DNA of 58,929 nt from IMG/VR virus record IMGVR_UViG_3300020400_000001, positions 1-58,929 of that record; one strand, written 5' to 3'. The DNA is from a virus. Its lineage: Duplodnaviria > Caudoviricetes. The notes beneath the pieces were generated by a model. The model worked only from the letters and a program-made list of their open reading frames with translations, was not told the DNA's origin and ran no database searches. The position numbers and the translations under genes are program-made. Below are positions 23,214 to 57,656 of this stretch, one piece after another; the first letter of the stretch is position 1, and each line of letters begins with the position of its first letter.

Positions 23214-24125
23214 TTAGCTCGCTCCCGGACTTGCGTAGATGCCTAGAGGGTCTGATACACCAAAGGAGTATCTTTCTCTAGCTTTATATCTAACATTTCC
23301 AGTCTCGAAGTCACCATCCATGCTGGTTGTCATTGGACTTCTAACGAAGTGCTTCATTCCATCAGGAATATCTGTAGTAATGAAGAAAGCGTTAGTGTCA
23401 GTCAGGTAATGATTTACAACAAAACCTTCAGGAATTACTCCATTAGTTTTGATTGCATTGATGTCATTATCTGCAGTTCCAACTCTGTAGTCACTTTGAA
23501 GTAGTCTAGTTGCTACGAATTGAAGCTCAGAAGGTATGATTAACTTTCTTGCTCTAGCAGCAATCTTAAGACCTCTTTCATCTGTGTACTTACCAATTTG
23601 AATAATAGCATCTTCTAAAGAAGCTTCGTTCAAATCTGCACCAGTTGTTGGTCTGTTTGAGTTTGTACCACCATTAACAAGTGGGTGTGCTGTATTAAAT
23701 AAACTTACACCATCACCACTTTGGAAAGAACTAAAACCATTGTTAAGTGGTAATGCAGCTTTCACTTGTTTTGTGTACGCCATAGCACGAGCCAAAGCTT
23801 TGGTATATCTGGCAGAAAGTTGCACATAGAGGTTATCCTCCATTGCTTCTTCTGTTACAGCAAATCCCATTGCTATAGTTTCGTGTGTATATCTAGCGAC
23901 AAAAGACTCTTGTGCAGTATCATAAGTGATAGCCGAACCTTCGTCTTTTACTGGAGCAGCACCAAATCCTGACAGCTTTAACTCTTCTTCAAAACTTCTT
24001 TCAGAGTTTTCAGTTGTATAGATTTCCTCATGCTCATTGTCATGAGTTGCGTACTCTTCGCCAAAGAGGGCATTTAATCCCGGTAGGAGTTGCTTTAACT
24101 CATTTGCTCTTGAAATAGCAGCCAT
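23214..24125 (-). CDS. Major capsid protein (Mu gpT-like family)
   Basis: MAAISRANELKQLLPGLNALFG, SERSFEEE, ARYTKALARAM, DFETGNVRYKARERYSFG; follows scaffold; terminator downstream. Confidence 0.88.
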   Translation of the reverse strand: MAAISRANELKQLLPGLNALFGEEYATHDNEHEEIYTTENSERSFEEELKLSGFGAAPVKDEGSAITYDTAQESFVARYTHETIAMGFAVTEEAMEDNLYVQLSARYTKALARAMAYTKQVKAALPLNNGFSSFQSGDGVSLFNTAHPLVNGGTNSNRPTTGADLNEASLEDAIIQIGKYTDERGLKIAARARKLIIPSELQFVATRLLQSDYRVGTADNDINAIKTNGVIPEGFVVNHYLTDTNAFFITTDIPDGMKHFVRSPMTTSMDGDFETGNVRYKARERYSFGVSDPLGIYASPGAS

Positions 24126-29399: not shown

Positions 29400-30896
29400 T
29401 CAGTAATAGTCTGCGACTTTATTATGTTCTAATGGTTCTTCTTCCTCGTCACTATCCAAAGGAATAAAACCACCTTGTCTAAATCTTAACAGAGCTTGCG
29501 TGCTGCTATCAACTAAATCATCATGTTCCATATTAGGAAATCCTGCAAACTCTTCGACAACTTCTTCTGCCCAACGAGTCTCAGGACACCATACTACTCC
29601 TGATGAAAATAAATCTGATACAGCATTTACTCTCGAAATCTTATCGTTACCTCTGCTTGGCGTGTACTCTTGTACTGGTATTCCTATAGCACGCAGTTCA
29701 AATATCAAAGGCATCCCTGCTGCTTTTGCCTCAACAATGAAAGCATCGGGTTTGAATTCTTTATACTTATCCATAGCTCTAACTTTTAGCTCTGGAAACT
29801 CTAGCCTATCTTTATAGGCATCTAGCAATATTACATTGGGTGCTAGCATCCCTTCATCGTTTTCTTTATAGAACACTCCCCATGTAGTACAAGCAGAATA
29901 GTCAGCACGCTGGTTTTTCATAAAGGCAGTATCCCAAGATTGTATTATAAACTCACAGTCTGGTGGATTTCTGCCTTCCCATGTTTTCCACCATTCCCTC
30001 TTAACCAAGGCACTCTCTTCTGCTGTAGGGTCTTGTTGATACTGTGCTTGCCATTTGCTATTAGGCAGTTCTGCTCTCAAAGCTTCTAATTCTGTAAGCG
30101 ACCAAAACTCTTCCCACAATGGATTACCTGAAGGCATGATGGCTGGGAGTTCTATTACTTCCCATTGGTCTGCACCACCTCGCTTTATGCTAGCATCTAT
30201 AACCTGACCAGTAAGGTCTCGCTGATGCCATCTTGTCATTACCACAACGATAGCACCATTCGGTTGCAAACGCTGTCTCGGTCCTGATGTATACCACTCG
30301 TAAGTTCTATTGAATACATTGACATCGCCACTCGCACCCTCTTGTTCTGAATGAGGGTCATCGATTATCAATAAGTCTGCACCTTTACCAGTAACCGCAC
30401 CGCCTACACCTATTGCAAAGTATTCGCCACCTTTGTTGGTATTCCAACGACCAGCAGCTTTGCTATCTGCTTGCAAACTGACATCAGGAAATATCTTCTT
30501 GTAGTCTTTGCTGTTCACAAGGTTTCTAACCTTCCTACCAAAGCCAACCGCTAATTCTGCAGTATGGGCAGTCTGGATTATCTTCTTATCAGGTGAACGC
30601 CCTAAGAACCACGCAGGAAGCAAATAAGAGGCGAACTCACTCTTGGTATGTCTAGGAGGCATATTAATAATTAAACGCTTTATCTCGCCTCTAGCGACCT
30701 TCTCGAAAGCCTCAGCCATTATCTCGTGATGTTTACCATGAATAAACGCTGACCACATCTCTTGTACAAAGTTTAGGTAGTTATCGTGGGATAACTCTCT
30801 CTGCTTCGCATCCTCGTATTCTTCAAGCAAATCCAATAGCTCTGCTTTCTGAGAATTACTAAGACTCCTTATCTGATTTAAAACATTTTGATTCAT
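29400..30896 (-). CDS. terL: Terminase large subunit
   Basis: INMPPRHTKSE (Walker A variant), LLIIDDPH, MTRWH, nuclease QSWDTA...HDDLVDS. Confidence 0.95.
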   Translation of the reverse strand: MNQNVLNQIRSLSNSQKAELLDLLEEYEDAKQRELSHDNYLNFVQEMWSAFIHGKHHEIMAEAFEKVARGEIKRLIINMPPRHTKSEFASYLLPAWFLGRSPDKKIIQTAHTAELAVGFGRKVRNLVNSKDYKKIFPDVSLQADSKAAGRWNTNKGGEYFAIGVGGAVTGKGADLLIIDDPHSEQEGASGDVNVFNRTYEWYTSGPRQRLQPNGAIVVVMTRWHQRDLTGQVIDASIKRGGADQWEVIELPAIMPSGNPLWEEFWSLTELEALRAELPNSKWQAQYQQDPTAEESALVKREWWKTWEGRNPPDCEFIIQSWDTAFMKNQRADYSACTTWGVFYKENDEGMLAPNVILLDAYKDRLEFPELKVRAMDKYKEFKPDAFIVEAKAAGMPLIFELRAIGIPVQEYTPSRGNDKISRVNAVSDLFSSGVVWCPETRWAEEVVEEFAGFPNMEHDDLVDSSTQALLRFRQGGFIPLDSDEEEEPLEHNKVADYY

Positions 30897-31937: not shown

Positions 31938-32372
31938 TATGAAGAACAGATTTAAACAGACACGAAACAAGCGACACGATTTGTCGCTCTCTCGTGGACA
32001 AAATATGGAGGGTAGAAACAATAGACCAGTAAAGATTTTTATTTGACCGCTTGCGGAAAACACCTAGGGAAGGTGGCAAGCGTGGAGTCAATCCTTGGCT
32101 CTCTAACTCAGGAAGGAAAACTCGCAGACAGGCTGACGAGGCGTGAAAGTAAGGACACCTCTGACCGACAGCGAAACAAGACTATCACTTGTTAGCACGA
32201 AACAAGATGTCGCAAAATGTAAATGATGGTCACTAACGAGTGACGATTGGATAGACATAAAGTGACCTATCCGACTCTGAGATGAGAATAAAAAAACATT
32301 TATGTAAAACAAATTCCTTAAAGAAAATTTTTTGTGAGGGATGGCGCTTTGCTATCCCTCGCAATATCTGTC
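31938..32372 (+). ncRNA. Candidate ~435-nt structured leader/ncRNA ending at the hammerhead 1 cleavage site
   Basis: No credible plus-strand CDS; at least seven stems visible by eye. Confidence 0.5.
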
Positions 32373-32417
32373 GCAAGGTGTGTGCCTTGCCTGAAGAAGC
32401 GAAAGCAGAAACAGATA
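32365..32417 (+). ncRNA. Type III hammerhead ribozyme HH1
   Basis: TATCTG-TC^-GCAAGG tgtgtg CCTTGC-CTGAAGA-a GC gaaa GC a-GAAA-CAGATA; GUC cleavage after 32372; very short stem II. Confidence 0.85.
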
Positions 32418-32448
32418 CTTTTAACTTTTAATTTTGCAGAGGTGCATT

Positions 32449-32565
32449 ATGAAAAATTTCTATATCAGAAATATCAAGGTGAACAGAGATAGCAGAAAGC
32501 AATCTGTTCGTAAATTTAAAAACAGTTCTCGATACTGGGAAGCACAATCCAAGGAGGTGGTCTAA
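32449..32565 (+). CDS. Small basic protein (38 aa, not in ORF track), first gene after HH1
   Basis: GAGGTG RBS; MKNFYIRNIKVNRDSRKQSVRKFKNSSRYWEAQSKEVV; TAATG coupling to next gene. Confidence 0.7.
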   Translation: MKNFYIRNIKVNRDSRKQSVRKFKNSSRYWEAQSKEVV

Positions 32566-32843
32566 TGGCGGAACTACAAAAAAACATGCTGACTATAGAG
32601 GAACGAGACGAGTTGCAGAATAAACTCATAAGAGATATTCAGACAATACTCATGCAAGCACATATGCTAGAGAAATGGTCGGAGATACTAAAAAGACTCG
32701 ACACTCTAAGCTACGATGCTGTCTATGATTTGATGGATACTTTTCTAAAAACTTCTCGATACTCTGAGAGCGCTAAGTTAAAGACAGTAGATTTTCTTAC
32801 TGTCCTTGCGGAACGAATGAGTGAAGATGGGAGGTGGTCATAA
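32565..32843 (+). CDS. Hypothetical early protein
   Basis: GGAGGT RBS; 92 aa. Confidence 0.75.
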   Translation: MAELQKNMLTIEERDELQNKLIRDIQTILMQAHMLEKWSEILKRLDTLSYDAVYDLMDTFLKTSRYSESAKLKTVDFLTVLAERMSEDGRWS

Positions 32844-33100
32844 TGAAAGATTTTTATGTGACTAAAGAGACAGTCGAAGTTCTCGAGTATAGAGGTTTTC
32901 GTATCCGAAAAATAATTACTCGTTCTGAGAAGTTTGGAACAGAAGTTTTTTACCATGCAGAGTATAAGAGGGATAGCGAATGGCATAACGAATATTTGTT
33001 ACCGACTTATTCTTGTGTGCGTGACTGGATTGACGAGCAACACGAAAGCGAGGACTTTCAAGAATGGGAGAAGGAAGTTTGGAATAATCCGAATTTCTAA
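32843..33100 (+). CDS. Hypothetical early protein
   Basis: GGAGGT RBS and TAATG coupling give start 32843. Confidence 0.7.
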   Translation: MKDFYVTKETVEVLEYRGFRIRKIITRSEKFGTEVFYHAEYKRDSEWHNEYLLPTYSCVRDWIDEQHESEDFQEWEKEVWNNPNF

Positions 33101-33144
33101 TCCATTTGAGGAGAGGGTTGAGCAATCAATCCTCTCTCTCAAAA

Positions 33145-33202
33145 AACTGTCATCGAGGTGTGTGCCTCGGTCTGATGATGGAACAAAAGTTCCGAAACAG
33201 TT
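33145..33202 (+). ncRNA. Type III hammerhead ribozyme HH2
   Basis: AACTG-TC^-ATCGAGG tgtgtg CCTCGGT-CTGATGA-t-GGAAC aaaa GTTCC-GAAA-CAGTT; cleavage after 33151. Confidence 0.93.
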
Positions 33203-33234
33203 CTTTTAACTTTCACAATTTGCGGAGGTGCAAT

Positions 33235-34311
33235 ATGAGTGAAGAAAATAAAATGATGGAAGCCTCTCCATCTAAAGCTTTGAGGCTATTAAACAATGTC
33301 GTGAGTGCTGGAAAAGTTCCGATGCTCTTAGGCGGTGTTGGTGTTGGTAAATCTGCGATAGTAAATGAGTTCGCTCAGGTGCTAGCTGGAGATAGAAAAA
33401 TCGTTGAGACAATTAGACCTAAGAAAGACGAGTTCGGTTCGCTTGATTTTAGAGCGAGTCTGTATGAGACGATTGAGTTGGGTGGTCTACCTTTCATTGT
33501 AAATGGAGAACAGAAGAGAGCGTTTCTCGGAAATCTTCCAGTCAGTGGAGAGGGTCTACTTTTTATTGACGAGTTCGCTCAAGCGACTGCGGATATGCAG
33601 AAGCTTCTCGGACAGTTGGTTCATGAGAGAAGGCTGGGAGAATATGTCATGCCTGAAGGCTGGCATATTGTCATGGCTGGAAACAGAGCGAGTGATAGGT
33701 CAGGTGCTAACAAGATGCTTGCTCATATGACCAATAGGCTGGCTCTGATTAATTTCAAGCATGATGTTAATGACTGGCTCGTTTGGGGTTCTCAGGCTGG
33801 TGTTCATTCCTCTATCTTAGGGTTCATAAATTTTATGCCTAAGTTGTTATGGAAGTTCGATGCCAAGGATAGTAATCCTCAACCTTCTCCAAGAGCATGG
33901 TCGAGACTGTCTGACATCATGAAGGCAATGCCTGAGAGTGACAAAGACTTGATGCCTTTCCACGCTCAGAGCAATGTCGGTATCGAGGCTGGATTAGAAT
34001 TTATGAATTTCATAAATCTATCTCAGGATATTCCGAACCTTGCAGACATTGTCGATGGCAAGAAGGTCGATGTTCCTGAGACCATGGGTCTGCAATATGC
34101 GACAGCAGTTGCGTTGGTCTCTGCCATCCAAGATGCAGACGAGAAGTTGAAGCCTTCATACTTCGATAACTCTCTGAAATGGATTGATACTTTTCCATCG
34201 AAAGAGTTCGCTGTCTTTTTCATGAGAGCGGTGGTCGGTGTCTGCCCTGAGTTGAAAAACACCAGCACCTATTCAGTTTTCATTTCTGAAAATGACAAGG
34301 TGTTAATCTAA
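33235..34311 (+). CDS. AAA+ ATPase (MoxR/dynein-related)
   Basis: Walker A GGVGVGKS, Walker B LLFIDE, MAGNR, NR finger, PSPRAW; start reassigned to ATG 33235 (GGAGGTG RBS). Confidence 0.9.
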   Translation: MSEENKMMEASPSKALRLLNNVVSAGKVPMLLGGVGVGKSAIVNEFAQVLAGDRKIVETIRPKKDEFGSLDFRASLYETIELGGLPFIVNGEQKRAFLGNLPVSGEGLLFIDEFAQATADMQKLLGQLVHERRLGEYVMPEGWHIVMAGNRASDRSGANKMLAHMTNRLALINFKHDVNDWLVWGSQAGVHSSILGFINFMPKLLWKFDAKDSNPQPSPRAWSRLSDIMKAMPESDKDLMPFHAQSNVGIEAGLEFMNFINLSQDIPNLADIVDGKKVDVPETMGLQYATAVALVSAIQDADEKLKPSYFDNSLKWIDTFPSKEFAVFFMRAVVGVCPELKNTSTYSVFISENDKVLI

Positions 34312-34328
34312 ATCAGACTGGTGGGGGG

Positions 34329-34349
34329 AAATATTACTAGTCAATATTT
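34329..34349. promoter_or_regulatory. Representative copy of dispersed palindrome AAATATTAC-N2-GTAATATTT
   Basis: AAATATTACTAGTCAATATTT; 12 or more related copies in the genome (see findings). Confidence 0.6.
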
Positions 34350-34367
34350 CTCCCTACTCAGTTTCAG

Positions 34368-34422
34368 AAACTGTAATCGAGTGGGTACTCGGTCTGATGA
34401 TTGCAAAAGCATGAAACAGTTT
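34368..34422 (+). ncRNA. Type III hammerhead ribozyme HH3
   Basis: AAACTG-TA^-ATCGAG tgggta CTCGGT-CTGATGA-t TGC aaaa GCA t-GAAA-CAGTTT; GUA cleavage after 34375. Confidence 0.88.
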
Positions 34423-34460
34423 TTTTAACTTTCTTTAAATTAATTTTGCGGAGGTGCAAT

Positions 34461-35426
34461 ATGAAAAAGAAAATCAAAATAGATACTATCTTTCAAGATA
34501 CTTTTACGAAGGTCAGGTTTTATTCGTCTGCCATTAGTGGTATCAAAAAAGATAGCTTTGCGAGTGAGGAGTTAGCCAGCAATAAAAATGCTGTCGCTTC
34601 TCTCGTTGGTGTTAATAAAAAAATCTTCGGTAGAGATATTAATAAAGAGTTCCGAAAAATTCAGAATGAATTTAGAAAGAAGTATCTTTATAAATATACT
34701 CACGCTTGGCAAGATGGCGAGGGCATGGCATCTGAATGGAGGATAGTCTCCAATGAGAAGCTTGATACTTTGCTTAATGGTTACGAAGAGTATGAGGCTA
34801 AGTTCTCAGAGTTGGTCAATGAGATTAAGACTGATTATCTTAGACTCATCCAAGAGGGCATGGCTAAACTTGGTAAGCTTGCGAATGAGCAAGACTACAA
34901 AGAATGGCATCAAATTGAAAAGAAATTTGCTTTCAATATAACGACTGACTTTTTCAGTTCTTATGACACAAGCAATGACGAAAGAATTCATGCGGATGCT
35001 AAGAGGAGAAAAGCGATAGAGAACAATGTCGCTTCTCGTTATGAGTCTAACTTCAAAGTGCTAGCAGAGAAGATGAAAAAGGACTTGGAGGGTTCAATAA
35101 CTAACATCATCAATGCTCTAAAGAAAGATGGCTCAGGTAAATCCTTTTTCAAGGACAGCGTGTTTCAAGGTCTTAAAGACCAAATTGAAACTAACAGAGA
35201 CCTGAATAAAAAACTCTTTCAAAGCGAAGAGATTGACAAGGCTATTCAAGTTTGTGTCGAGTCTCTCGCTTCAGTAAATGACATCGACTCTCTGAGAGAC
35301 AAAGGCGATATTGGAAAAACCAAAAGAGCAAAAGTCACTCAGGACATGGAGAAGGCTAAGTCAATTCTTAATCAGAATACGCTTGGCAAAATCTTTTCAG
35401 GTGCTGGATTAGAGGAGGGCAAGTAA
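34461..35426 (+). CDS. Helical protein, DUF3150-like, partner of the AAA/VWA pair
   Basis: GVNKKIF, YTHAW...WRIV, MAKLGKLANEQDY pattern; position between AAA and DUF2201 genes; start reassigned to 34461. Confidence 0.55.
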   Translation: MKKKIKIDTIFQDTFTKVRFYSSAISGIKKDSFASEELASNKNAVASLVGVNKKIFGRDINKEFRKIQNEFRKKYLYKYTHAWQDGEGMASEWRIVSNEKLDTLLNGYEEYEAKFSELVNEIKTDYLRLIQEGMAKLGKLANEQDYKEWHQIEKKFAFNITTDFFSSYDTSNDERIHADAKRRKAIENNVASRYESNFKVLAEKMKKDLEGSITNIINALKKDGSGKSFFKDSVFQGLKDQIETNRDLNKKLFQSEEIDKAIQVCVESLASVNDIDSLRDKGDIGKTKRAKVTQDMEKAKSILNQNTLGKIFSGAGLEEGK

Positions 35427-36973
35427 TGAGTAGCTACGATAAATCTCAGAGGTCTCTTCATGGTGGTCTTTCTGCTAATGAAGTAATGCTCAAGGCGAAA
35501 AACAAATTGATGAATTCTGAGTCAGGTCTTGCATCAATTCTTTTGAGTCTGCCCTTGGAAGAGGATAGTTCTTTTGACACCATGGCAACCAATGGCGAGG
35601 TCATAAAATACAATCCTGATTTTGTCCTCGGTCTACCGATGGAAGAAATCAAAGGTGTCCTCATTCACGAGGCTCTTCATGTTGTATGGGGTCATCATCT
35701 TAGAAGAGGCGATAGGCATCCGAAGCTTTGGAATATTGCTACTGATTATGCAATCAATGGCTATGAAGTTTATAAGCTTGGGAAACAGTTGCCTCAAGGT
35801 GCATTGCTCTCGCATAGATACCTAAACAAAGATGGCTCTATCATGGATGCGGATACCATTCATGACATCTTGTTCGATGACGATGAGGCTCTTCAAGAAG
35901 CTATCGATGATATGCAACAGCAGATGGGCGATGACTCTGACGAGAACGAAAGTCAGGGTCAGGGTCAGGATGACAATCAAGATGAGTCTGAAGAGGATAC
36001 TCAAGGCTCAGGCTCAGGCGATGGCGATGAGGAAACCGATGAGGAAACCGAAGGTCAGGGTTCAGGCGGAAATGCAGATGGAGATGCGGAGACTGGTGAT
36101 GATGAAAATATTACTGGTCAGGGTTTCTCCGATGAGCGTTCTCCTGAGACCAATGAGTCAGGGAAGATTGACTTGAATGATTTGCCTCAGATGGCTGGCG
36201 GTGTCTTTGACATGACTAACGAAGATGGCTCTCAGTTTTCTGAAGATGAGTTGCAAGAGCAGATAACTAAACTTGATGCTCAAGTAATGATGGCAGAGAA
36301 AGTTCAAGGCATGATTAATTCAGGCGAAGGCTCAGGGATTGATTATCTCGGAGGTCGTAAGTCTGAGTTGGTTGAGCAAGTTGTTCCTTGGGAGGATATG
36401 TTTAGAGATATGTTCACTCAGGTTCAATCGAACAATAACACTTGGTCTATGCCTAATCGCAGACACATGGCTCGTGGTATCTATATGCCTAGTAAGGACA
36501 AAGAACCATCAATCAAAAATGTCGTGATGCTGGTTGATGTTTCAGGTTCTACTGAGGGTGATAGAGACTCATTCATTACTGAGGCTCTCGCTATCCTCGA
36601 AGAGTTTCAGGTCAAGAAACTCATGGTCAATAGGTATGCTGGTGTCGCTCTCAGAAATGAGCAAGGCGAATACTTCGATGTCTACGATACTGACCAAGGA
36701 GATGAGATGCCTGATAAAGATGAAATCAATTTTGCTGGGTCAGGGTGGACTAACTTCGATGCGCCATTCAATGCTGTCGAAGAGTTCCTCGACCTTGATG
36801 AGATTGATTTGATTGTTCACTTCTCGGATGGAGAGGGAAGCTTCGAGCAAGAACATGATGCCTTGCTTGATACTCCTATCTGTCATGTCTTTAGCTATGG
36901 TCAGGATGGCAGTAGCTATGGCGGTAATGAGATTGAAGAGTCAGGTTTCGGAGAAGTTATCTACATGAGTTAA
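35426..36973 (+). CDS. DUF2201-type metallopeptidase-like plus VWA domain protein
   Basis: TMATNG..IKYNPDFV, HEALH (HExxH), WNIATDYAIN, acidic linker, MIDAS DVSGS, GWTNF, FSDG. Confidence 0.85.
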   Translation: MSSYDKSQRSLHGGLSANEVMLKAKNKLMNSESGLASILLSLPLEEDSSFDTMATNGEVIKYNPDFVLGLPMEEIKGVLIHEALHVVWGHHLRRGDRHPKLWNIATDYAINGYEVYKLGKQLPQGALLSHRYLNKDGSIMDADTIHDILFDDDEALQEAIDDMQQQMGDDSDENESQGQGQDDNQDESEEDTQGSGSGDGDEETDEETEGQGSGGNADGDAETGDDENITGQGFSDERSPETNESGKIDLNDLPQMAGGVFDMTNEDGSQFSEDELQEQITKLDAQVMMAEKVQGMINSGEGSGIDYLGGRKSELVEQVVPWEDMFRDMFTQVQSNNNTWSMPNRRHMARGIYMPSKDKEPSIKNVVMLVDVSGSTEGDRDSFITEALAILEEFQVKKLMVNRYAGVALRNEQGEYFDVYDTDQGDEMPDKDEINFAGSGWTNFDAPFNAVEEFLDLDEIDLIVHFSDGEGSFEQEHDALLDTPICHVFSYGQDGSSYGGNEIEESGFGEVIYMS

Positions 36974-37074
36974 TCTCAATGAGCGTTCTGAGAGGAGGTT
37001 TTTAGGGTGGTACTAAACCTTAGCCTCCTCTCTTTTCGCCAGCGAGAGAGCCTCTATGGAGGTCGAATTCAGGA

Positions 37075-37158
37075 AACTGATAGAGAAAATGTGTGTTTTC
37101 TCCTGATGACTCAATATGAGAGCGTGTAAGCGTTGGTTCAAAAGAACCGAAATCAGTT
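37075..37158 (+). ncRNA. Type III hammerhead ribozyme HH4 with a 25-nt insertion in the core
   Basis: AACTGA-TA^-GAGAAAA tgtgtg TTTTCTC-CTGATGA-[37110-37134]-GGTTC aaaa GAACC-GAAA-TCAGTT; AUA cleavage after 37082. Confidence 0.8.
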
Positions 37159-37186
37159 CCTTTTAACTTTCAAATGCGAGGTGCAT

Positions 37187-37366
37187 ATGAAAAAAATATA
37201 TGAAAAGTTTTTGAGTCTTTTCAAAACTCAAGTGGTGGAAGATAAATCTTATTATCTTTCGTATGAGAATGGTGGTGTTCTTGTTTTGCACAATCCTGTG
37301 GAACAGGGAGGAGAAAATATTACGAGTAATATTTCCTCAAGCGTCACAAAAACTGGAGGTGCGTAA
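37187..37366 (+). CDS. Small early protein (59 aa)
   Basis: GAGGTG RBS gives start 37187; TAATG coupling. Confidence 0.7.
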   Translation: MKKIYEKFLSLFKTQVVEDKSYYLSYENGGVLVLHNPVEQGGENITSNISSSVTKTGGA

Positions 37367-38954: not shown

Positions 38955-39004
38955 AGCGGAGGCTATGTGGTATTAATTTACTGCATAGTCTCCGCTTTTT
39001 TTTT
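38955..39004 (+). terminator. Intrinsic terminator ending the early operon
   Basis: AGCGGAGGCTATGTGGTA / TACTGCATAGTCTCCGCT stem followed by a T tract. Confidence 0.88.
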
Positions 39005-39095
39005 GGTCAAAAATCCTCTCCCGAAAACTATTACTGGTAAATATTTTTTCACCATCTCGTGTACGCTTGGTGGAGATTATGGTCAGAAAATTGAA

Positions 39096-39127
39096 TGTGG
39101 ATAATTCTGTGGATAAGCTGTGAATAG
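39096..39127 (-). promoter_or_regulatory. Tandem DnaA boxes
   Basis: TGTGGATAA (reverse complement of TTATCCACA) at 39096-39104 and 39108-39116; one-mismatch TGTGAATAG at 39119-39127. Confidence 0.75.
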
Positions 39128-39128
39128 T

Positions 39129-39157
39129 TTGACGAGGTGCAAGCCGATTGCTATACT
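39129..39157 (+). promoter_or_regulatory. Strong sigma70 promoter for the sRNA
   Basis: TTGACG-17 bp-TATACT with extended -10 TG. Confidence 0.82.
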
Positions 39158-39162
39158 GGTTG

Positions 39163-39261
39163 AACAGCGACAGAGATTGTCGTTATTAAGAAGTGTTTTA
39201 ACGACACCTCCTAAGAAAGTTAAAAGTTGAGAGAGGTAATAGACTGCCTCTCTCTTTTTTT
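39163..39261 (+). ncRNA. Putative trans-acting antisense sRNA (~98 nt) against the hammerhead-linked leaders
   Basis: Own promoter and terminator, no ORF; CACCTCC (39205-39211) and AAGAAAGTTAAAAGT (39213-39227) are complementary to the RBS and TTTTAACTTT box of all four leaders. Confidence 0.78.
39229..39261 (+). terminator. Intrinsic terminator of the sRNA
   Basis: GAGAGAGGTA-atagac-TGCCTCTCTC-TTTTTTT. Confidence 0.88.
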
Positions 39262-49709: not shown

Positions 49710-52700
49710 TTATTGATTTATGAAAGTTTCTATTTTGGTACGAAGATAAGGTACTTTGGATAGTCTTGCATTTCTAGCAAGGTCAAGTTGCATAAGCAAT
49801 TCTTTTTTTACTTCGTCTGAGATAGTCTCGTCTCTTTTGATTGCATCTCTTCTATCTCTGTATCTTTTCATATACCTATCGATACGCAACACTTGAGGTC
49901 TGGTTTCTATCAAGCCTTCATTGTTGGCTCGAAATGTTTGGACTTCTTTAAACATACCTCTTTCTTTCAGTTCATTGATAGTTGCAATGGCTCTATTGCT
50001 TTCCTCTCTTAGTTCATAGAATTGTTGCTGAACACCAGCACCTACTTCAGAGGCAAATATACGCTTCAGGAGAGGCAATCTATCTATAGTAGGGGTCACT
50101 ATGTCTTTACCAGTCACGCCTCTTGTGACCGCATCTATGAGGCTCAGAATGTAAGTACCTATAGTTCCGCCATATCCACTCAAAGCATATTCAAGTTTCA
50201 TAGGAGAAATGTTCAAGCCTTGTCCTATTAATCTAATGAATTCGTTTGTTTGAGGTGTGGCTTGTAGCCTAGGTTCTAAGCTTCTTTCTATATAATCAGG
50301 TACAACACGATTACCAGTAAAGCCACTTCTATTATTTATGTATGCTTCATAGAAAGGTTTGATAGCTTGGAAACCAAAGATGTCTACCATAAATGTTTGA
50401 GTCAATGCCCTTGAAGATGTTCTGCTTAAATCTTCTAAGCTTGATTGACCCATTAGAACATCTGCTATTCTCTCAGGTAAAGTCTTGAACAAAACTCCTA
50501 CTTCAAAAGGTACTGGTATTTTTAAAGGTGGGAGTCCTTCAGATGAAAAGATAAACCAGTTGTCATCTCTTTCTTCTCTTCTTCTTGCTCTGTACTCATC
50601 CTTGTCACTAACCATTGCATAATAAAGTAGTGTAGCCATTGCAAGCAATCCACCTCTTAATGCAAATCCTTTGATAATATTATTACGAATTTGGTTATCT
50701 GAGGTGACAGCAGCTCCCGGGCTGCCTGCAGAATATTTACCAGTCATACTTCTGTACAGTACATCTAGTCCTTGTATTCTTGCATTTAAGAATGGAATAG
50801 CTGTTGTAATAATAGACATAATTGGATGCCCACCTCTTCTTGAGAAGTTAATTATTTCTGATGCTTGGAAAGCCGCTTCGGTGTGACTGCCAGTAGCTTC
50901 TAAAACTTTTTTATAAACACCTAATCTTGTTGCACCATCTGACTCATAAGTTTTTCTGCCTAAATAATCCCATACTTTTATCATGGCATCTTTAGGATTA
51001 AGACTACCATTCTCTCCAAAGCCAGCCTCTTTTACTTTCTTGTCAAAAAATCTAACTGCATCTACAGAGTCTGCTGAATAATCGTATCCTCCAAGGACAC
51101 CAAATCTTTCTAGCTCTCTTAAATCCGTAGCACCAAATAGTTGAAAATTTCTAAAGGTATCTATGACAGGTGTTATGCGAGAACCACTTGTTACAGAAGC
51201 TGACATTGTATCTCTCAACATATTAATAAGTATAAATCCGGGGTCTCTTGTGACTGTTTCTCTAAGTAGAGTTGCAGGCATACCTAGGAAAGTAGATATA
51301 ACTCCCAAGTCATCTTGTATGCCGAGTGTTCTTAAGCCTTCAAAGTAATATGGGTCAGCTACTTGAAAGAATTTTTTTCTACCATCTACAAATACTGGAA
51401 TAATATCTATGCCTTGTGCTTTATCAGATGGCACTTCTCTTGCGCCTAATTCTAAATCTCCATCAGCATTATCTACTCTTGATAGGAGATGGTTTCTCAT
51501 AAGCTTTTGTGCAGCATCGTTTCTCATTCCAGCAGTAAGAATTGCTAGTTGATTTCTTAGAATAGCTTCAATAGGTCTGACATTAACAGCTTCTTGCTTA
51601 CCTCTCATGGGTATGGCTAGAGGATTACCACCAAGTATTCCGCCACCTATATTAGGTGCATTAACTTTGCTTTCAGCTTCATTAACCATGGCTCTATAAA
51701 AAGGATAGTAAGAAGCATCATCCTTCCATATCTGTGCAGTAGACCTAGTCTCAATAATATTTTCAGGTTGTAGTCCTTTAACACTATTAAACTGTTCAGC
51801 AAGTAATAATAACTTAGCATCCGAAGCATCTTTTGCTGACTCAATACCATTGTCTAATAAAGCTTTTCTTATTTCAGGTATTGGTGCTAAGTCAGAAATC
51901 ATTCCAGTATCTATACCAAACTGTATAGTCTTTGCATTTATCTCTGTAAAAATATCCCAAGCTTCTTTAACTTCTTTGTATTCATTTCCTATAGCTAGAG
52001 CTTGTTCAATCTTAGCTACAGTTGCATCTAAGTCTATCTCTCCATCTTCTTTATTAACTTGTAAAGGTATTGGTTGTCCTTTAACTAACTTGCCATTTTC
52101 ATCATACTGATTTTTATCTAAGATAGTTTTACTTCTAATACCTACTCCATAAGTACCAAAAAGTTTTTCAGCATCTATGCTTTCTTTCTGTGCTAAGTCA
52201 TATAATCTTCCAAAAGCATTTATAAAATTTAATCTTCCATCTATTTCAACAGAAGCTAATCCATTCTTCATGGTCATAAAACCATCTTTAATTACAGATG
52301 CAAAAATACCTTTAGCTTTATCTGTCCACAACATAGCTTGGTATGCACCAGTCTCTGCAAATCTTTCTATGTTTTCTAAATCTGGATTAGCTGCAACATT
52401 CTTTTTAATACCTTGTAGTTCTTTGTTGTACTTATCAATGATTGCTGCTCTCAAAGATGTAAGCCATCTACTTGGATTTCCAAAAACAGTTCCTTCTGAT
52501 ACTCTTTCCCAAAAAGATAAAGGTGCATCTTCTATTTGTCCTAAAGCATCATCAACTATTTTTTCATGTTCTTTAGGTACAGGTTGTTTATCTATTCTAA
52601 AAGTAGGTAAGTCTTTATAGCTTTCATCATTTTCTTGTTCTATTTCATATGCAACTTTTTGCGCTAAGTCACTTGCCTTATTATTAAATCTAGGCACAGC

Positions 52701-55700
52701 TTCTGAATAAGTCTGTTCATTTTCTTTTTCTATAAAATCTTTAGCTTCTTTTATTTTTGCTTGCTCTTGTGCCAATGTTTCTTCTTTGGCTGAGTCTAAC
52801 TCTGCAGTTGGTTTGGAATAAACAACATCTGAAAAACCTAATCTACCGCTAGTAAGTTCTATATCTCCATATTTATCTGCAATAAAACCAGTTCCTAAGT
52901 TTTGCCAAAAGTCTAATGCAGAAGGTGTTATGTTTATTATGTTAAGTTTTTCTTTGCCATCTACTATATTAGGATTAGTAGACATAATAGTTTCAAGAAT
53001 AGCTTTAGCTATCCCATTGCCTTGTTGATTTTGGTCTATAAAAATATTTTCTAAATGAGTAATGTTTCCATCTTCATCTCTACCTATTGAAACTCCACCA
53101 ACTAAATCTGCTGGTGGTGAAGGTCTAAGATAAGCAGGGTCATCAGGAGATATATTGAGAGAGTCGTTTATTTCTTTAGCTACTAATACTAATGGAGTGT
53201 TGTAATTAAATGTAAGTTTTTCTCCTAGCTTTTCATTAAAGAAACCAAATTGTTTAAAACCAAGTAGTGCGTTATGCACAGGATTAGAAAAAAGAATATC
53301 TCTTATTTCATTACTAGGTTTGGCATAAACTTCATATAGTTCATATGTTCTATCAAAGATAAGGTCTGCTGCAAAAGAAGGATTAGTTTCAGTTGATTGA
53401 CCAGTCTTACTTAAAACAATATCTGTACTAACTCCATTTAAATCAACAGTAGCTTCTATCTTTTCATTGAGTCCACCTTTATCTTTAAAGTCTACAGATT
53501 TTTGTGGACTAATTTTTCTATTAAATGTCGGAAGGTCTACTATTTTTTCAGGGAAAAATCCCCATCTACCCCAGCCTCCATTACCATCCCAACGAAGTTC
53601 TCTTGCTCTTATAGTATATTCATGAAGTTTTGATGGAGTCTTGCTAGACATTATTATGCCCATTAAGTCTCTATCAATAAATTCATCTGCTTGGTTTCTA
53701 AGTCTTTCAGCAGTTAAATCAATAGCACCTGTTCTTTCAATATCTTGTTGTCTTAATCTTTCTCTTTCTGCTTCTCTAATTTGCTGTCGTGTTATTTGTG
53801 AATCTTTTACAAGTTGTACAGCTTCTGTTCTAAGAGGAGTTACTAAGTCTCCTTCTCGCAAATCTCTTTGTGGTGCAGCTTGATACACAGTTATACGAGC
53901 ATTAGGATTACCTTGTGCCTCTTGCAATGCTTGAAAAAATTGTTGCTCTTCTGCTAAAAGTTGTAAGCTATCTTTAATATATATAGCTTCATCAGTCTGT
54001 GGGTTTACCAAAGACTCCATTCCATTTTCTTCTACATATTTATTTATTTGACCAAATCTATTTCTATAAACAGAATAAATTTGAAACTCATTTGGGTCAT
54101 AAAGATTTCCGCTTACACCAAATGTTCCATACTGACCAAGTAATCCTTTGTAAAATTCTTTATCAGAAGTATTTTCATTTAAATTATCTGCAGGCGGACC
54201 ATACTGTGGAGGAACTAAATCAGCTACATGACCTGTAGAATTATCTCTATCTAATTTGAAAGCTTTAGGTTCATCAATAACATCTTTCAATGCTACTTTA
54301 ATAGGTTGTTCTCTTTCACCATCAGTATCTCCAGTAGCTTGAGGAGTATTCAAACTAGCACCAGCACCTACCAGTTGGTTAATCAGTATCATAGAGTCAT
54401 TAGCTGACCTAATTTTGTTTCTATCTCTTCTACCTATAACACCAGCTTCTATATCTTCTAGAATTTTATAAGGATTTCTAAAGTCAGAAATATAAATGCC
54501 ATTGAACATCTCTCTTATAAAATCAAAAAATCTTTGTACTCTAGTTCTTTGTGTACGATTTAAACTGCTTGGGTCTTTTGTATAAACTCTAAAAAACTCT
54601 GCAACAAATTCTTCATCAACCGCATAAGGTGGTAGCTTAAGTTCATCAACATAGTTTTTCTTTATTTTCTTTTGAACATCTTGAGGCAAAGCTGCTTTGG
54701 CTTCTTTAACTAATTGTTGATACTCTCCTTCTGTAAATAAACCTAAATTCCTCATAGCATGAATGACTTCATGGTTTAAATCTTGTACCATCTTTTCTTC
54801 TAAAGCAGGCATTCCACCAAAAGGCATCCCACCGGGATTAATACTAGCCATGTAAAAGAGCATTGTCTTATGTGCTTTATTGTATTCAGCATCTGGTTTT
54901 TCAGTACCTTCTTTAAAACCAATAACATTACCATTATCATCTCTAACAGCATTTTGCATACCCTTGTAATAATCGGTAATCTTTATCCTGACATCTTTAC
55001 TTAGACCTAGCTTCCTTAATCTTCGGTCTAAAGCTTTTGCTAAAGTATCATAGCTTTCTAAAGTAATTGGTGGTGGTAAAGTTAATACAGGTTTTGGTGG
55101 ACCAAATACTAACTTATCAACTTCTTCAGGAGTAAGTTGTGTTTGCTCTAATCTTTCTATGTATTCACCTTGAGTTTCATTATCAGGCGTAGCATTTTTA
55201 GATTGCTCTAGTTTATAGTTTGGATTGCCAAGAACTCGATTGCCTTTTTTTATAGCACGCTTACTAAATAATAAATCTTTTTTAAACTTATCTCTTTGTG
55301 TTTTAGTATTAACTAAATTTTGAGAATCAAAGTAAGTCTGTATTTCTCTATCAGTAATAGCACTATTTTGATATTGATTAGCAAAAGCATTTAATTGTTG
55401 CTCTGTATATTGTCGAGGCATTAAATCAGGTATAGAAGTTGGAGAGTCAAACCTAGGCAAAGCACCTAGTCTAGTCATCAACATTTCTTTTTGACCTAAG
55501 TTCATCTTAGAAAACTTAGCTTCGCCTGTAATAGTTTTTCTAATAAACTCAAACTCTGGACCAGTAATATTTCCTTTAATATTCTTAGCAGCTAATATTT
55601 GTTTGAACGCTGCTGGCGATACATCAATAGTATTATCTTCTCTTCTGCCTACTTCATTCAACAAACCATACTGTGCATCTAATTCAAAAAGAATATTTGC

Positions 55701-57656
55701 TCTATCTCTCATTAATTGATTAAAGTCAGCAGGTTTTAAAATTCTTTTTACTTCGTCTATTGTGTAATAACTTTTCTTACCAAAACCTTTTTTATCTGCT
55801 CTATTTTGGAAATCATTTAACAAACTAGAATTTTCTTCAGACAATAATGCTTCTTGCAAAGGAGATACTATCTCTCCATTTTCATATCTTTTTATGAGTT
55901 CATTTGCTTTTTCTGCACCAAACTCTCTTGTAAGTTCTTTCTTAAGTTGTGTTTTAGATTTCTTTTTATCTTGATATTCTGCAGGTATCTCATCTAATTT
56001 ATAAACAGGTTTTAATAAATTAATTTCTGATTCTAATCTTTCCCTAGCTTCTAAGTTTCCATCGCCTCTAGTCAAAGCATCTATTAACTCTAAAGTATTA
56101 ACAGATTTTTCTAACTCTTGTATTCTTTCAAAATCTTTTATCTGCCTTCTTCTTTCACCACTTACTACAGAATCAAGAAGCGCAACTCTCCTTGCATCTA
56201 ATATATTTCTTTTAGGGTCATATAAAATTTGTAGCAATCTTTTCATACTGCCACTTTCTGAAAATCCATTTATGCCAGCTATTTGAACTGCAATATTATT
56301 TATGTAATTAGTTCTTAAAGTTTCCTGTACTTCTAAAGCTTTATTAGAAGCTTCTTCTAAAGAACCAAGCACATCAACTTCTTCAGGTGGTGGTGGTCTA
56401 TTTTCTATCTGCACCTTTGGTATTAAAACTCTTGAAGTTTCATAAACAATTCCACTATCAACACCTACAACTGAAGAAGAACCATCCTCATTTTGTACAA
56501 CTTGTACTTCTTCTAATACAGGTAGTTCTTGTTTAGGCTCTGGAGTTGTATCATCTAATACTTCTTCGGCAACAGGTGGTTTATCTTGTACTATAGGTGT
56601 AGCTTCAAAATTAATATCTTTTGCTTGTTGTCTTTCTTGTTCTCTAGCATCACCCATTATTTTTCTAGAGTCTAATTCTTGTTCAACATCTATAGACTGA
56701 CCTATTTTATTTTTACCCATAAAACCACGAAGAACTAAATCAGCAGTAGCACCTACAGCACCACCAGTCATTGCACTATCTAAAAATGACTCTCCTATTT
56801 TTAAATTTTCGTTGTACATATTTGCAGCTATTGCATCTTGCATAATTTCAGCTACACCTTCTTGCAATCCTTCTACTCCACCAGTTGCAGCAGCAGACTT
56901 TAATCTATCAATGACATTTAATTTTTGTCCATCAGATTTAGTTAAGCTTTTTAATAATCTAGTAGGTGCAAATATTTCAGTAGCACCTACTGCACCACCA
57001 AATATTTCTGAAAATATTTCTTGTGTTGGATTTACACTTTCACCTTCTAGTTCTGCTCTTTCAATTCTACTGCCTTGCTCAGATATACCAGTTGGTACTG
57101 CAAATCCTAATGTTGCATTTCTTCTTGCTCTATTTAATCTAGTAGAAACTTCTTCTAATTCTTTAAGAGTTTTTGTTAGCTGTGTACCACCTTGAGTTTT
57201 TGCAAGCCTTTGTAATTGTGAAGCTTTGCCTGCAAGACCTGTAAGTTTTCCAACAGCAGTACCCGGAATCAAAAAAGAACCAAAAGAACCTAAACCTTGT
57301 CCAAACTGTGTACTAAACTTATCTTCATATCCTTTTGCTGGTTTTAATAATTCTAGTTCTCCAATAAAGTCTTGAGCATTTCTTAACGAATCTCCTATTG
57401 CAGAGTCATTGCCAATATCAAATATATTTACTACACCCTCAAGACCTGATAAAAGACCTTGTCCTAATCCTCTAGGTATACCTTTAGCTACCTCTAAGAC
57501 ATTTCCGCCTAGAGTAGTTTCGGTAGGTTCTTGGTATTGGGTAAAGTTATCGGGGTACTCTTGAGCAAGAGTATTTTGAAGCCTTATATAATAATCTCTA
57601 TCTGCATCTGCTGGAACATCTACATATCTTCCATCAGGTAAATTATATCTTGGCAT
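49710..57656 (-). CDS. Giant polyvalent internal virion protein (zincin-like HExxH, ART-like, GNAT-like, C-terminal LPD38-like)
   Basis: 2648 aa; NHEVIHAM...DEEFVAE; IFIDQNQQGNGIAKAIL; INFSRRG, IPFLNARIQG, RDDNWFI, IPVPFEVG. Confidence 0.8.
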   Translation of the reverse strand: MPRYNLPDGRYVDVPADADRDYYIRLQNTLAQEYPDNFTQYQEPTETTLGGNVLEVAKGIPRGLGQGLLSGLEGVVNIFDIGNDSAIGDSLRNAQDFIGELELLKPAKGYEDKFSTQFGQGLGSFGSFLIPGTAVGKLTGLAGKASQLQRLAKTQGGTQLTKTLKELEEVSTRLNRARRNATLGFAVPTGISEQGSRIERAELEGESVNPTQEIFSEIFGGAVGATEIFAPTRLLKSLTKSDGQKLNVIDRLKSAAATGGVEGLQEGVAEIMQDAIAANMYNENLKIGESFLDSAMTGGAVGATADLVLRGFMGKNKIGQSIDVEQELDSRKIMGDAREQERQQAKDINFEATPIVQDKPPVAEEVLDDTTPEPKQELPVLEEVQVVQNEDGSSSVVGVDSGIVYETSRVLIPKVQIENRPPPPEEVDVLGSLEEASNKALEVQETLRTNYINNIAVQIAGINGFSESGSMKRLLQILYDPKRNILDARRVALLDSVVSGERRRQIKDFERIQELEKSVNTLELIDALTRGDGNLEARERLESEINLLKPVYKLDEIPAEYQDKKKSKTQLKKELTREFGAEKANELIKRYENGEIVSPLQEALLSEENSSLLNDFQNRADKKGFGKKSYYTIDEVKRILKPADFNQLMRDRANILFELDAQYGLLNEVGRREDNTIDVSPAAFKQILAAKNIKGNITGPEFEFIRKTITGEAKFSKMNLGQKEMLMTRLGALPRFDSPTSIPDLMPRQYTEQQLNAFANQYQNSAITDREIQTYFDSQNLVNTKTQRDKFKKDLLFSKRAIKKGNRVLGNPNYKLEQSKNATPDNETQGEYIERLEQTQLTPEEVDKLVFGPPKPVLTLPPPITLESYDTLAKALDRRLRKLGLSKDVRIKITDYYKGMQNAVRDDNGNVIGFKEGTEKPDAEYNKAHKTMLFYMASINPGGMPFGGMPALEEKMVQDLNHEVIHAMRNLGLFTEGEYQQLVKEAKAALPQDVQKKIKKNYVDELKLPPYAVDEEFVAEFFRVYTKDPSSLNRTQRTRVQRFFDFIREMFNGIYISDFRNPYKILEDIEAGVIGRRDRNKIRSANDSMILINQLVGAGASLNTPQATGDTDGEREQPIKVALKDVIDEPKAFKLDRDNSTGHVADLVPPQYGPPADNLNENTSDKEFYKGLLGQYGTFGVSGNLYDPNEFQIYSVYRNRFGQINKYVEENGMESLVNPQTDEAIYIKDSLQLLAEEQQFFQALQEAQGNPNARITVYQAAPQRDLREGDLVTPLRTEAVQLVKDSQITRQQIREAERERLRQQDIERTGAIDLTAERLRNQADEFIDRDLMGIIMSSKTPSKLHEYTIRARELRWDGNGGWGRWGFFPEKIVDLPTFNRKISPQKSVDFKDKGGLNEKIEATVDLNGVSTDIVLSKTGQSTETNPSFAADLIFDRTYELYEVYAKPSNEIRDILFSNPVHNALLGFKQFGFFNEKLGEKLTFNYNTPLVLVAKEINDSLNISPDDPAYLRPSPPADLVGGVSIGRDEDGNITHLENIFIDQNQQGNGIAKAILETIMSTNPNIVDGKEKLNIINITPSALDFWQNLGTGFIADKYGDIELTSGRLGFSDVVYSKPTAELDSAKEETLAQEQAKIKEAKDFIEKENEQTYSEAVPRFNNKASDLAQKVAYEIEQENDESYKDLPTFRIDKQPVPKEHEKIVDDALGQIEDAPLSFWERVSEGTVFGNPSRWLTSLRAAIIDKYNKELQGIKKNVAANPDLENIERFAETGAYQAMLWTDKAKGIFASVIKDGFMTMKNGLASVEIDGRLNFINAFGRLYDLAQKESIDAEKLFGTYGVGIRSKTILDKNQYDENGKLVKGQPIPLQVNKEDGEIDLDATVAKIEQALAIGNEYKEVKEAWDIFTEINAKTIQFGIDTGMISDLAPIPEIRKALLDNGIESAKDASDAKLLLLAEQFNSVKGLQPENIIETRSTAQIWKDDASYYPFYRAMVNEAESKVNAPNIGGGILGGNPLAIPMRGKQEAVNVRPIEAILRNQLAILTAGMRNDAAQKLMRNHLLSRVDNADGDLELGAREVPSDKAQGIDIIPVFVDGRKKFFQVADPYYFEGLRTLGIQDDLGVISTFLGMPATLLRETVTRDPGFILINMLRDTMSASVTSGSRITPVIDTFRNFQLFGATDLRELERFGVLGGYDYSADSVDAVRFFDKKVKEAGFGENGSLNPKDAMIKVWDYLGRKTYESDGATRLGVYKKVLEATGSHTEAAFQASEIINFSRRGGHPIMSIITTAIPFLNARIQGLDVLYRSMTGKYSAGSPGAAVTSDNQIRNNIIKGFALRGGLLAMATLLYYAMVSDKDEYRARRREERDDNWFIFSSEGLPPLKIPVPFEVGVLFKTLPERIADVLMGQSSLEDLSRTSSRALTQTFMVDIFGFQAIKPFYEAYINNRSGFTGNRVVPDYIERSLEPRLQATPQTNEFIRLIGQGLNISPMKLEYALSGYGGTIGTYILSLIDAVTRGVTGKDIVTPTIDRLPLLKRIFASEVGAGVQQQFYELREESNRAIATINELKERGMFKEVQTFRANNEGLIETRPQVLRIDRYMKRYRDRRDAIKRDETISDEVKKELLMQLDLARNARLSKVPYLRTKIETFINQ

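Follow-up and report, generated by a model that had tools for sequence, protein, structure and literature searches.

A clustered set of four putative type III hammerhead ribozymes in the non-structural operon of a marine phage, including a variant with a two-hairpin insert

RNase III sites in the early mRNA of phage T7 lie between the cistrons of one long transcript, and processing there gives the upstream product a 3′-terminal hairpin. RiboJ-type synthetic insulators place a type III hammerhead ribozyme in the 5′ leader, where it strips the upstream RNA and defines a 5′ end ahead of the ribosome-binding site. Type III hammerheads (Rfam family RF00008, with viroid, satellite and prokaryotic members) have open ends in stem III and hairpins as stems I and II. 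In their natural loop–loop motif, loop 1 has a 5′ U and loop 2 a 3′ A above an R:A opposition (PMC2632901). Clustered hammerheads, several within a few kilobases (kb) on the coding strand of phage genes, have been described in prophages of Clostridium scindens, Azorhizobium caulinodans and Agrobacterium tumefaciens, where the arrays cleaved in vitro and one cleaved in Escherichia coli (PMC3088659). Three of them cleaved polycistronic transcripts of about 2 kb in vitro, and Perreault et al. 2011 proposed that such clusters process RNA into operon- or gene-length mRNAs (PMC3088659). Reviews still treat the role of phage and bacterial hammerheads as unsettled (PMC6155905; the 2019 review PMC6765202). 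Here we analyse a whole IMG/VR virus record, IMGVR_UViG_3300020400_000001, of 58,929 base pairs (bp; CheckV completeness, 100%), hereafter the window, which carries four candidate type III hammerheads and adds members to the clustered phage hammerheads known since 2011.

The four elements resemble the prophage clusters in lying on the coding strand of phage genes, all within a few kb of one another, but differ from them in being type III paralogues of one subfamily, carried by a free marine phage and syntenic across its clade, each copy being coupled to a hairpin upstream and to the translation leader that all share. They share with RF00008 the open stem III, the hairpin stems I and II, the CUGANGA/GAAA core, the A15.1–U16.1 pair and the non-G H17. 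From their sequences and those of their relatives, the four elements constitute a real array in which at least three of the four copies are very probably hammerheads. It is also probable, if less secure, that all four self-cleave within one polycistronic mRNA and would thereby split the operon into separately decaying and translated blocks.

Both strands of the window were searched with a type III descriptor that begins with a stem III strand whose last base is U and continues with H17 (any base but G), a hairpin for stem I, CUGANGA, a stretch of at most about 70 nucleotides (nt), GAAA and the second stem III strand; at least 4 bp in each of stems I and III and an A15.1–U16.1 pair were required. 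Exactly four matches were retrieved, all on the plus strand, in agreement with the four type III hammerheads of a preliminary description made from the sequence alone, whose outer limits, 32365 and 37158, are the outer bases of copies 1 and 4. The same descriptor found a mean of 0.17 matches (maximum 2; at least one match in 30 of 200) in 200 first-order Markov shuffles, and none in the reversed sequence. The four copies are as follows.

32365–32417, plus strand: hammerhead copy 1, predicted cut after H17 (C32372); stem III UAUCUGU/ACAGAUA; stem I GCAAGG/CCUUGC with loop UGUGUG; core CUGAAGA at 32391–32397 with an extra A next; stem II GC-GAAA-GC flanked by A.A; GAAA at 32408–32411
33144–33203, plus strand: hammerhead copy 2, predicted cut after H17 (C33151); core CUGAUGA at 33172–33178 with an extra U at 33179; stem II GGAAC-AAAA-GUUCC at 33180–33193; GAAA at 33194–33197
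34368–34422, plus strand: hammerhead copy 3, predicted cut after H17 (A34375); core CUGAUGA at 34394–34400; stem II U.U plus UGC-AAAA-GCA; GAAA at 34413–34416
37075–37158, plus strand: hammerhead copy 4, a variant, predicted cut after H17 (A37082); core CUGAUGA at 37103–37109; stem II GGUUC-AAAA-GAACC at 37135–37148; GAAA at 37149–37152

All four copies contain CUGANGA (CUGAAGA in copy 1, CUGAUGA in copies 2–4) and GAAA, whose fourth A faces the U preceding H17 to give the A15.1–U16.1 pair. The cleavage triplets are GUC, GUC, GUA and AUA in copies 1–4, so that H17 is never G. Loop 1 is UGUGUG in three copies and UGGGUA in copy 3, and loop 2 is GAAA in copy 1 and AAAA in the others; the first base of loop 1 is U and the last base of loop 2 is A, above an R:A opposition, which matches the published loop–loop motif in sequence. 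These core, triplet and loop sequences had been given correctly in the preliminary description, as had the observation that stems I and III differ between copies yet remain paired, to which compensatory stem changes among relatives can now be added. Minimum-free-energy folds gave the three-way junction for copies 1 and 3 and, for copy 4, the same arrangement with two extra hairpins. Compared with shuffles, the fold of copy 1 had a z-score of −2.60 and that of copy 4 of −3.81, with none of 200 shuffles as good in the latter case.

We compared the array with ten IMG/VR contigs whose ATPase, encoded between copies 2 and 3, is 82–96% identical to that of the window at the protein level. The exact core was present at all 30 sites orthologous to copies 2, 3 and 4. 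Copy 1 was more variable: five relatives have the exact core, three (L001, L007 and L008) have an 8-nt core, CUGAAUGA, in one (L003) the element is truncated by the contig end, and in L006 it is fused with copy 2. The fused element (L006:5912–5969; same contig as L017:4856–4913) is a hybrid: its upstream hairpin and the 5′ strand of its stem III are those of copy 1, and stems I and II and the 3′ stem III strand correspond to copy 2 (compare window positions 32365–33203). Identity to the window was 90–100% for copies 2 and 4 in all ten relatives, with copy 4 at 94–97.6%, and for copy 3 in eight of them; the adjacent ATPase DNA was 82.5–85.8% identical in eight relatives and 95.5% in L001 and L008. 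The elements are thus more conserved than the adjoining coding DNA in most comparisons. Where they vary, pairing is kept, as in stem I of copy 2, which reads AUCGAGG/CCUCGGU, ACGAGG/CCUCGU or AGCAAG/CUUGCU among relatives.

Covariation was assessed in nine non-window sequences. Paired cells amounted to 94.4%, against 72.4% in shuffles (none of 500 reached 94.4%) and at most 43.8% with slid partners, and 12 of the 18 stem pairs were changed on both sides. A covariance model built from the same nine sequences, R1, retrieved copy 2 with 70.5 bits (E-value 4.8e-16), copy 3 with 55 bits and copy 1 with 48.9 bits (E-value 2.1e-10), and nothing better than an E-value of 0.6 in the rest of the window. 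Copy 4 scored 12.7 bits and was missed because of its 25-nt insert, described below. More distant contigs of the same subfamily were found by a DNA pattern scan of IMG/VR; 21 of 34 extra loci had no R1 match and were taken as chance pattern matches.

The 25 distinct instances comprise 16 with C and 9 with A at H17, and 20 with U and 5 with A at N7; in all of them the 15.1–16.1 pair, which the descriptor required, is A–U. U17 and C7 occur in further relatives, which brings the observed bases to U, A and C at N7 and to C, A and U at H17. A positional homologue in a distant relative, L056:1377–1431, is fully canonical (CUGACGA-GCAG-GAAA-CUGC-GAAA), with a flanking DUF2201 protein 33–35% identical to that of the window. 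Taken together, the comparative evidence from sequence supports the type III hammerhead identity well. A doubled N7 (CUGAAUGA or CUGAACGA) was observed in at least four elements with different stems, which suggests that the subfamily tolerates this insertion. The loci with a doubled N7 are:

L001:5298–5520
L007:1828–2052
L046:2565–2618
L035:1030–1087
L016:5610–5665

A further CUGAUGA...CGAAAC stretch lies at L006:5687 and L007:1710, about 250–930 nt upstream of copy 2. The type III descriptor does not fit it, and the window has no counterpart at the matching place.

Several observations weigh against the type III identification. Some of them concern the junction between the core and stem II, where our analysis adds to the preliminary description an extra nucleotide after A9, A.A or U.U oppositions with a short stem II, and the copy 4 insert. 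In none of the four copies does stem II start directly after A9 with a G10.1–C11.1 pair. Copies 1–3 have one extra nucleotide after A9, which in copy 2 is a bulged U before G–C; copy 1 has A.A at 10.1/11.1 with a stem II of only 2 bp behind it, and copy 3 has U.U with only 3 bp. The 10.1–11.1 pair, displaced or mismatched in all four copies, is the most conserved pair of hammerheads after 15.1–16.1 (PMC3088659). Copy 4 is not a plain three-way junction: its fold comprises stems I and III and three adjacent hairpins, that is, a five-way junction. In known hammerhead alignments, as far as they are given in PMC10085705, insertions at the core–stem II junction are limited to 1–2 nt, and copy 4 therefore lacks an active precedent. 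The fold of copy 3 has a z-score of only −1.00, with 34 of 200 shuffles as good. The 8-nt core of copy 1 in three relatives belongs here too, as does a natural variant with an insertion after A6 that had low activity when assayed (PMC3088659). Part of the pairing of stems I and III in the picked set is circular because the descriptor demanded both stems; stem II lay outside the sequence selection, and four of its five pairs are altered on both sides with 100% pairing.

Rfam searches point in the same direction. The whole window had no match at gathering score, and no hammerhead family was found at an E-value of up to 10 over positions 32300–37250 or over the whole record. The Hammerhead_3 check proposed in the preliminary description yielded no match at gathering score for any copy. 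Copy 2 was recovered only as a very short query, searched alone: its best Rfam family was RF00008 Hammerhead_3, in an alignment that spans the entire model and reads the extra U as inserted, and the score was 21.7 bits, the gathering score being 48.5. Copies 1, 3 and 4, each searched alone, had no hammerhead match at an E-value of up to 10. The phage copies fall far under the RF00008 gathering score, and they differ from the family by the extra nucleotide after A9 or the 10.1/11.1 mismatch and, in copy 4, by the 25-nt insert. Eleven related loci also gave no match at gathering score. However, the RF00008 threshold is a weak negative for this phage clade, since the canonical L056 element, at 30.7 bits, lies below it as well.

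For copies 1–3, the deviations stay within described variation. Active natural hammerheads often have a stem II of only two pairs, and U10.1–U11.1 is a natural and the best-tolerated mismatch (PMC3088659). A third precedent is a single extra nucleotide at the core–stem II junction of a functional natural hammerhead, as in the phage copies. De la Pena and Flores reportedly described in the Journal of Biological Chemistry in 2001 a viroid hammerhead with such an extra core nucleotide, placed between A9 and G10.1. In the phage subfamily, in contrast to the viroid hammerhead, the extra nucleotide is the rule, and in copy 4 it becomes 25 nt.

The copy 4 insert (25 nt, 37110–37134) lies between A9 and stem II and comprises two hairpins:

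37110–37120, plus strand: hairpin A, inside the copy 4 insert
37121–37134, plus strand: hairpin B, inside the copy 4 insert

The layout runs without linkers from the core through hairpin A, hairpin B and hairpin C (with the AAAA loop) to GAAA, and it occurs in three lineages with unrelated sequences:

alpha lineage, insert-type: the window and its close relatives
beta lineage, insert-type: L035:2259–2347 and L054:1411–1499
gamma lineage, insert-type: L046, L048, L056, L057 and L059

Compensatory changes were found within beta (G–C to A–U) and within gamma (U–A to C–G). The gamma element is the positional orthologue of copy 4, following a DUF2201-type gene whose product is only 33–35% identical to that of the window, and the beta insert-type ribozyme occupies the copy 3 position. 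RNAalifold on eight insert-type sequences recovered stems I and III, hairpin C and only part of hairpin B; since this incompleteness resulted from gamma rows being shifted by MAFFT, single-sequence folds were used for the insert architecture. In structural terms, copy 4 can be read as a three-way junction only if hairpin C serves as stem II. Since no linker separates the hairpins, the three of them would join the A9/G12 end of the core in a perfect four-way junction. We propose for it a stacking choice in which hairpin C would remain coaxial with the core and act as a normal stem II. The natural hairpin ribozyme likewise has a perfect four-way junction.

On sequence grounds, the element represented by copy 4 and its cousins is probably a hammerhead variant with a new structure, although the supplementary alignments of PMC3088659 and PMC10085705 might already include the subfamily or an insert variant. 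We suggest more tentatively, and with somewhat less than even confidence, that copy 4, like its beta and gamma cousins, is an active hammerhead with an undescribed architecture: domain II would be a four-way junction whose folding, or a factor bound to it, could set the cleavage rate. If so, copy 4 would be a naturally tunable hammerhead at one operon boundary. The two-hairpin insert extends the range of structures known for the hammerhead core, and an active copy 4 would be of interest to ribozyme structural biologists and aptazyme designers.

Each copy lies in a cassette of constant order: a strong hairpin, the ribozyme, a leader containing UUAACUUU, a Shine–Dalgarno sequence and AUG. The elements of the four cassettes other than the ribozymes are:

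32332–32364, plus strand: hairpin upstream of copy 1, 14-bp stem, −24.1 kcal/mol in a fold of the 75 nt before the cut
32418–32451, plus strand: leader block 1, UUAACUUU at 32421–32428, Shine–Dalgarno AGAGGUG, ATG at 32449
33105–33143, plus strand: hairpin upstream of copy 2, followed by an A-run, not a U-run
33204–33237, plus strand: leader block 2, UUAACUUU at 33206–33213, Shine–Dalgarno GGAGGUG, ATG at 33235
34315–34364, plus strand: hairpin upstream of copy 3, −26.3 kcal/mol, after the ATPase gene
34423–34463, plus strand: leader block 3, UUAACUUU at 34425–34432, Shine–Dalgarno GGAGGUG, ATG at 34461
36990–37033, plus strand: large hairpin upstream of copy 4, then UUUU; ends 49 nt before the cut
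37050–37063, plus strand: small hairpin upstream of copy 4, 5 bp; ends 19 nt before the cut
37159–37189, plus strand: leader block 4, UUAACUUU at 37163–37170, Shine–Dalgarno GAGGUG, ATG at 37187

The hairpins upstream of copies 1–3 end 0–11 nt before stem III and 8–11 nt before the cut, and none is followed by a U-tract. That of copy 1 is near-identical among relatives, that of copy 2 has a compensatory G–C to U–A change in L001, and that of copy 3 has an altered stem sequence that remains paired in L002, L006 and L007. Upstream of copy 4, the region 36974–37082 folds with −46 kcal/mol (z-score −3.91), and its large hairpin could be a partial terminator or a 3′ stabiliser. The UUAACUUU 8-mer stands at a fixed place after stem III in all four leaders and occurs 16 times in the window against 7.45 expected. 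It is identical to the initial eight bases of UUAACUUUAA, the ‘epsilon’ translation enhancer of T7 gene 10 (PMC9590205).

The array lies at the start of the non-structural gene block, which is on the plus strand and begins at 32449. Three small genes separate copies 1 and 2, the last stretch before the copy 2 hairpin being an open reading frame (ORF) of 85 amino acids (aa); an AAA ATPase gene (phrog_1297), starting at ATG 33235, separates copies 2 and 3; and a DUF2201/VWA-type gene precedes the hairpin upstream of copy 4. Copies 2–4 are flanked by conserved genes, those for the ATPase, a 321-aa ORF and the DUF2201 protein. The array had been described as punctuating an early operon. This holds for copies 2–4, which lie between genes, but not for copy 1, which lies in the 5′ leader before the first gene, and ‘early’ is to be read as a statement about gene content and orientation only. 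The three inner intergenic regions had no predicted sigma-70-like site, and a strong terminator-like site likely closes the operon that bears the four ribozymes:

38955–38996, plus strand: intrinsic-terminator-like hairpin of 18 pairs and a T-run, TTTTTTTT

The structural genes occupy the minus strand from position 1 to about 32.3 kb and include:

23214–24125, minus strand: capsid protein
29400–30896, minus strand: terminase

By terminase, the nearest isolates are Phage DSL-LC04, phage 023Pt_psg01 and the pelagiphages HTVC027P and HTVC023P, at 53–59% protein identity. An R1 search, which has a loose first look, gave zero matches in these four genomes, none of which had a match to the DUF2201 protein among the matches listed, and a blastn comparison of positions 32300–37250 with the phage collection found no match. 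Metatranscriptome pieces of the phage, 160–358 nt long, were present in three marine runs from two studies and were at least 99% identical in two of the runs; no listed piece spans or ends at a predicted cut site, and such contigs cannot reveal RNA ends.

These features suggest a model of operon processing. A single polycistronic mRNA would start at about 32.3 kb and stop at the terminator near 38.96 kb, which we infer from the lack of predicted inner promoters together with the terminator-like site at 38955–38996; the position of the ribozymes on the coding strand and the hairpins upstream of them are observed. Cleavage would take place once the 3′ strand of each stem III is transcribed, with cuts after 32372, 33151, 34375 and 37082. 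Each upstream RNA would end in a 2′,3′-cyclic phosphate, 8–11 nt beyond a stable hairpin in copies 1–3 and, in copy 4, 19 nt beyond the 37050–37063 hairpin and 49 nt beyond the 36990–37033 hairpin. Each downstream RNA would have its 5′-OH directly at the 7–8-bp hairpin of stem I and carry a translation leader of its own behind it. The cut in copy 1 would trim off a discarded 5′ leader and separate no genes, much as RiboJ does, although the phage elements are natural, four in series and have different loops. The operon would thus be split without a host nuclease into this discarded leader and four gene blocks, with the decay and translation of the blocks uncoupled from one another. Cleavage itself, a stabilising effect of the new ends and the activity of copy 4 despite its insert are presumed in this scheme from sequence.

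Like the T7 RNase III sites, the proposed scheme has intercistronic cuts that leave a 3′ hairpin on the upstream product. In the phage, however, the cut would be autocatalytic and leave 5′-OH and cyclic-phosphate ends, the hairpin would stand apart from the cut, and no host enzyme would be involved. The RNase III-like role advanced in the preliminary description accordingly fits the anatomy, with hairpins upstream and leaders downstream, and agrees by analogy with the processing proposed in PMC3088659; it does not extend to copy 1, which is not intercistronic.

If only some copies cleave, copy 4, copy 1 or both would be inactive relics or structural or protein-binding elements. These two copies deviate most from the consensus and match no Rfam hammerhead model, the alignments of PMC10085705, as far as they are given there, include no such insert, and some natural hammerhead-like sequences were inactive in assays (PMC3088659). 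Relics, however, would not retain all 11 core bases, and copy 4 keeps its 94–97.6% identity across ten relatives; its two-hairpin architecture and intact core occur in three lineages with unrelated sequences, with compensatory changes in beta and gamma, and at least four elements that differ in their stems share the doubled N7. We regard such partial activity as possible but doubtful. A more radical view takes all the elements as non-catalytic structured repeats, such as attenuators, RNase or protein sites, or stabilisers, that merely resemble hammerheads. That all scores lie under the Rfam threshold and all four copies are off consensus at the core–stem II junction would suit it. It is nevertheless very improbable, as the stems covary, N7 and H17 vary within the allowed set while the rest of the core is unchanged at all 30 orthologous sites, and fully canonical positional homologues occur in distant relatives.

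Active ribozymes could also be kept mainly as exchangeable gene-cassette boundaries, repeats of 55–85 nt that would act as recombination joints or move along with small accessory genes, with mRNA processing secondary. L006 has a single hybrid element and lacks the three small genes of the interval from copy 1 to copy 2, and the spacing between these copies falls into classes of 779, about 675, about 495 and 0 nt among relatives; the hybrid and the spacing classes suggest recombination between ribozyme copies. The insert-type ribozyme stands at the copy 4 position in alpha and gamma and at the copy 3 position in beta, and prokaryotic hammerheads often flank small non-conserved ORFs (review PMC6155905). 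But mere joints need no intact catalytic core, compensatory stems or kept loop signatures, and copies 2–4 adjoin the conserved ATPase, 321-aa ORF and DUF2201 genes, not variable cargo, and we consider it unlikely that boundary function is the main one. Paired cuts might instead free gene-length RNAs that the ribozyme or a host RtcB-type ligase joins into circular or spliced RNAs, a possibility raised for clustered hammerheads in PMC3088659 and for which the end chemistry is suitable. We give it hardly any credence: in the account of PMC3088659 the authors sought such products and found none, and no RNA ligase or kinase was named in family searches of the window proteins, with many ORFs outside the search. 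The metatranscriptome contigs contain no back-joined forms, but their coverage is much too thin for this to count. Processing of the operon mRNA would, by analogy with the prophage clusters, be the most likely role of the array, a view we hold with slightly better than even confidence.

With a syntenic, conserved array and a hairpin and common leader at every ribozyme, this clade is a good test case for the processing role. Given that combination, the processing-and-stabilisation model predicts four cut sites with defined end structures.

Similar arrays were also observed outside the phage clade. A pattern scan of genome contigs covered at least 120 loci, of which three had convincing arrays; one isolated match, L085, was not counted. 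The scan gave no hint of a host for the phage. A contig from a Patescibacteria metagenome-assembled genome (L153:3364–6384) has six type III hammerheads in about 3 kb, some with U.U or C.A at 10.1/11.1. This array and those of L111 (Candidatus Vogelbacteria) and L176 (Candidatus Saccharibacteria) have the same loop signature, with loop 1 UGUGYR and loop 2 RAAA.

Two further features of the window lie downstream of the array. The terminator-like hairpin at 38955–38996 and a second strong one at 39229–39254 bracket the region's best sigma-70-like site, at 39129–39157 (TTGACG, a 17-nt spacer and TATACT, with an upstream TG), and the interval 38955–39254 looks like an operon boundary enclosing a short transcription unit. 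On the minus strand, an ORF of 2648 aa (49710–57656) has a match to the LPD38 ‘large polyvalent protein’ domain (103 bits) and a borderline match to GNAT acetyltransferases.

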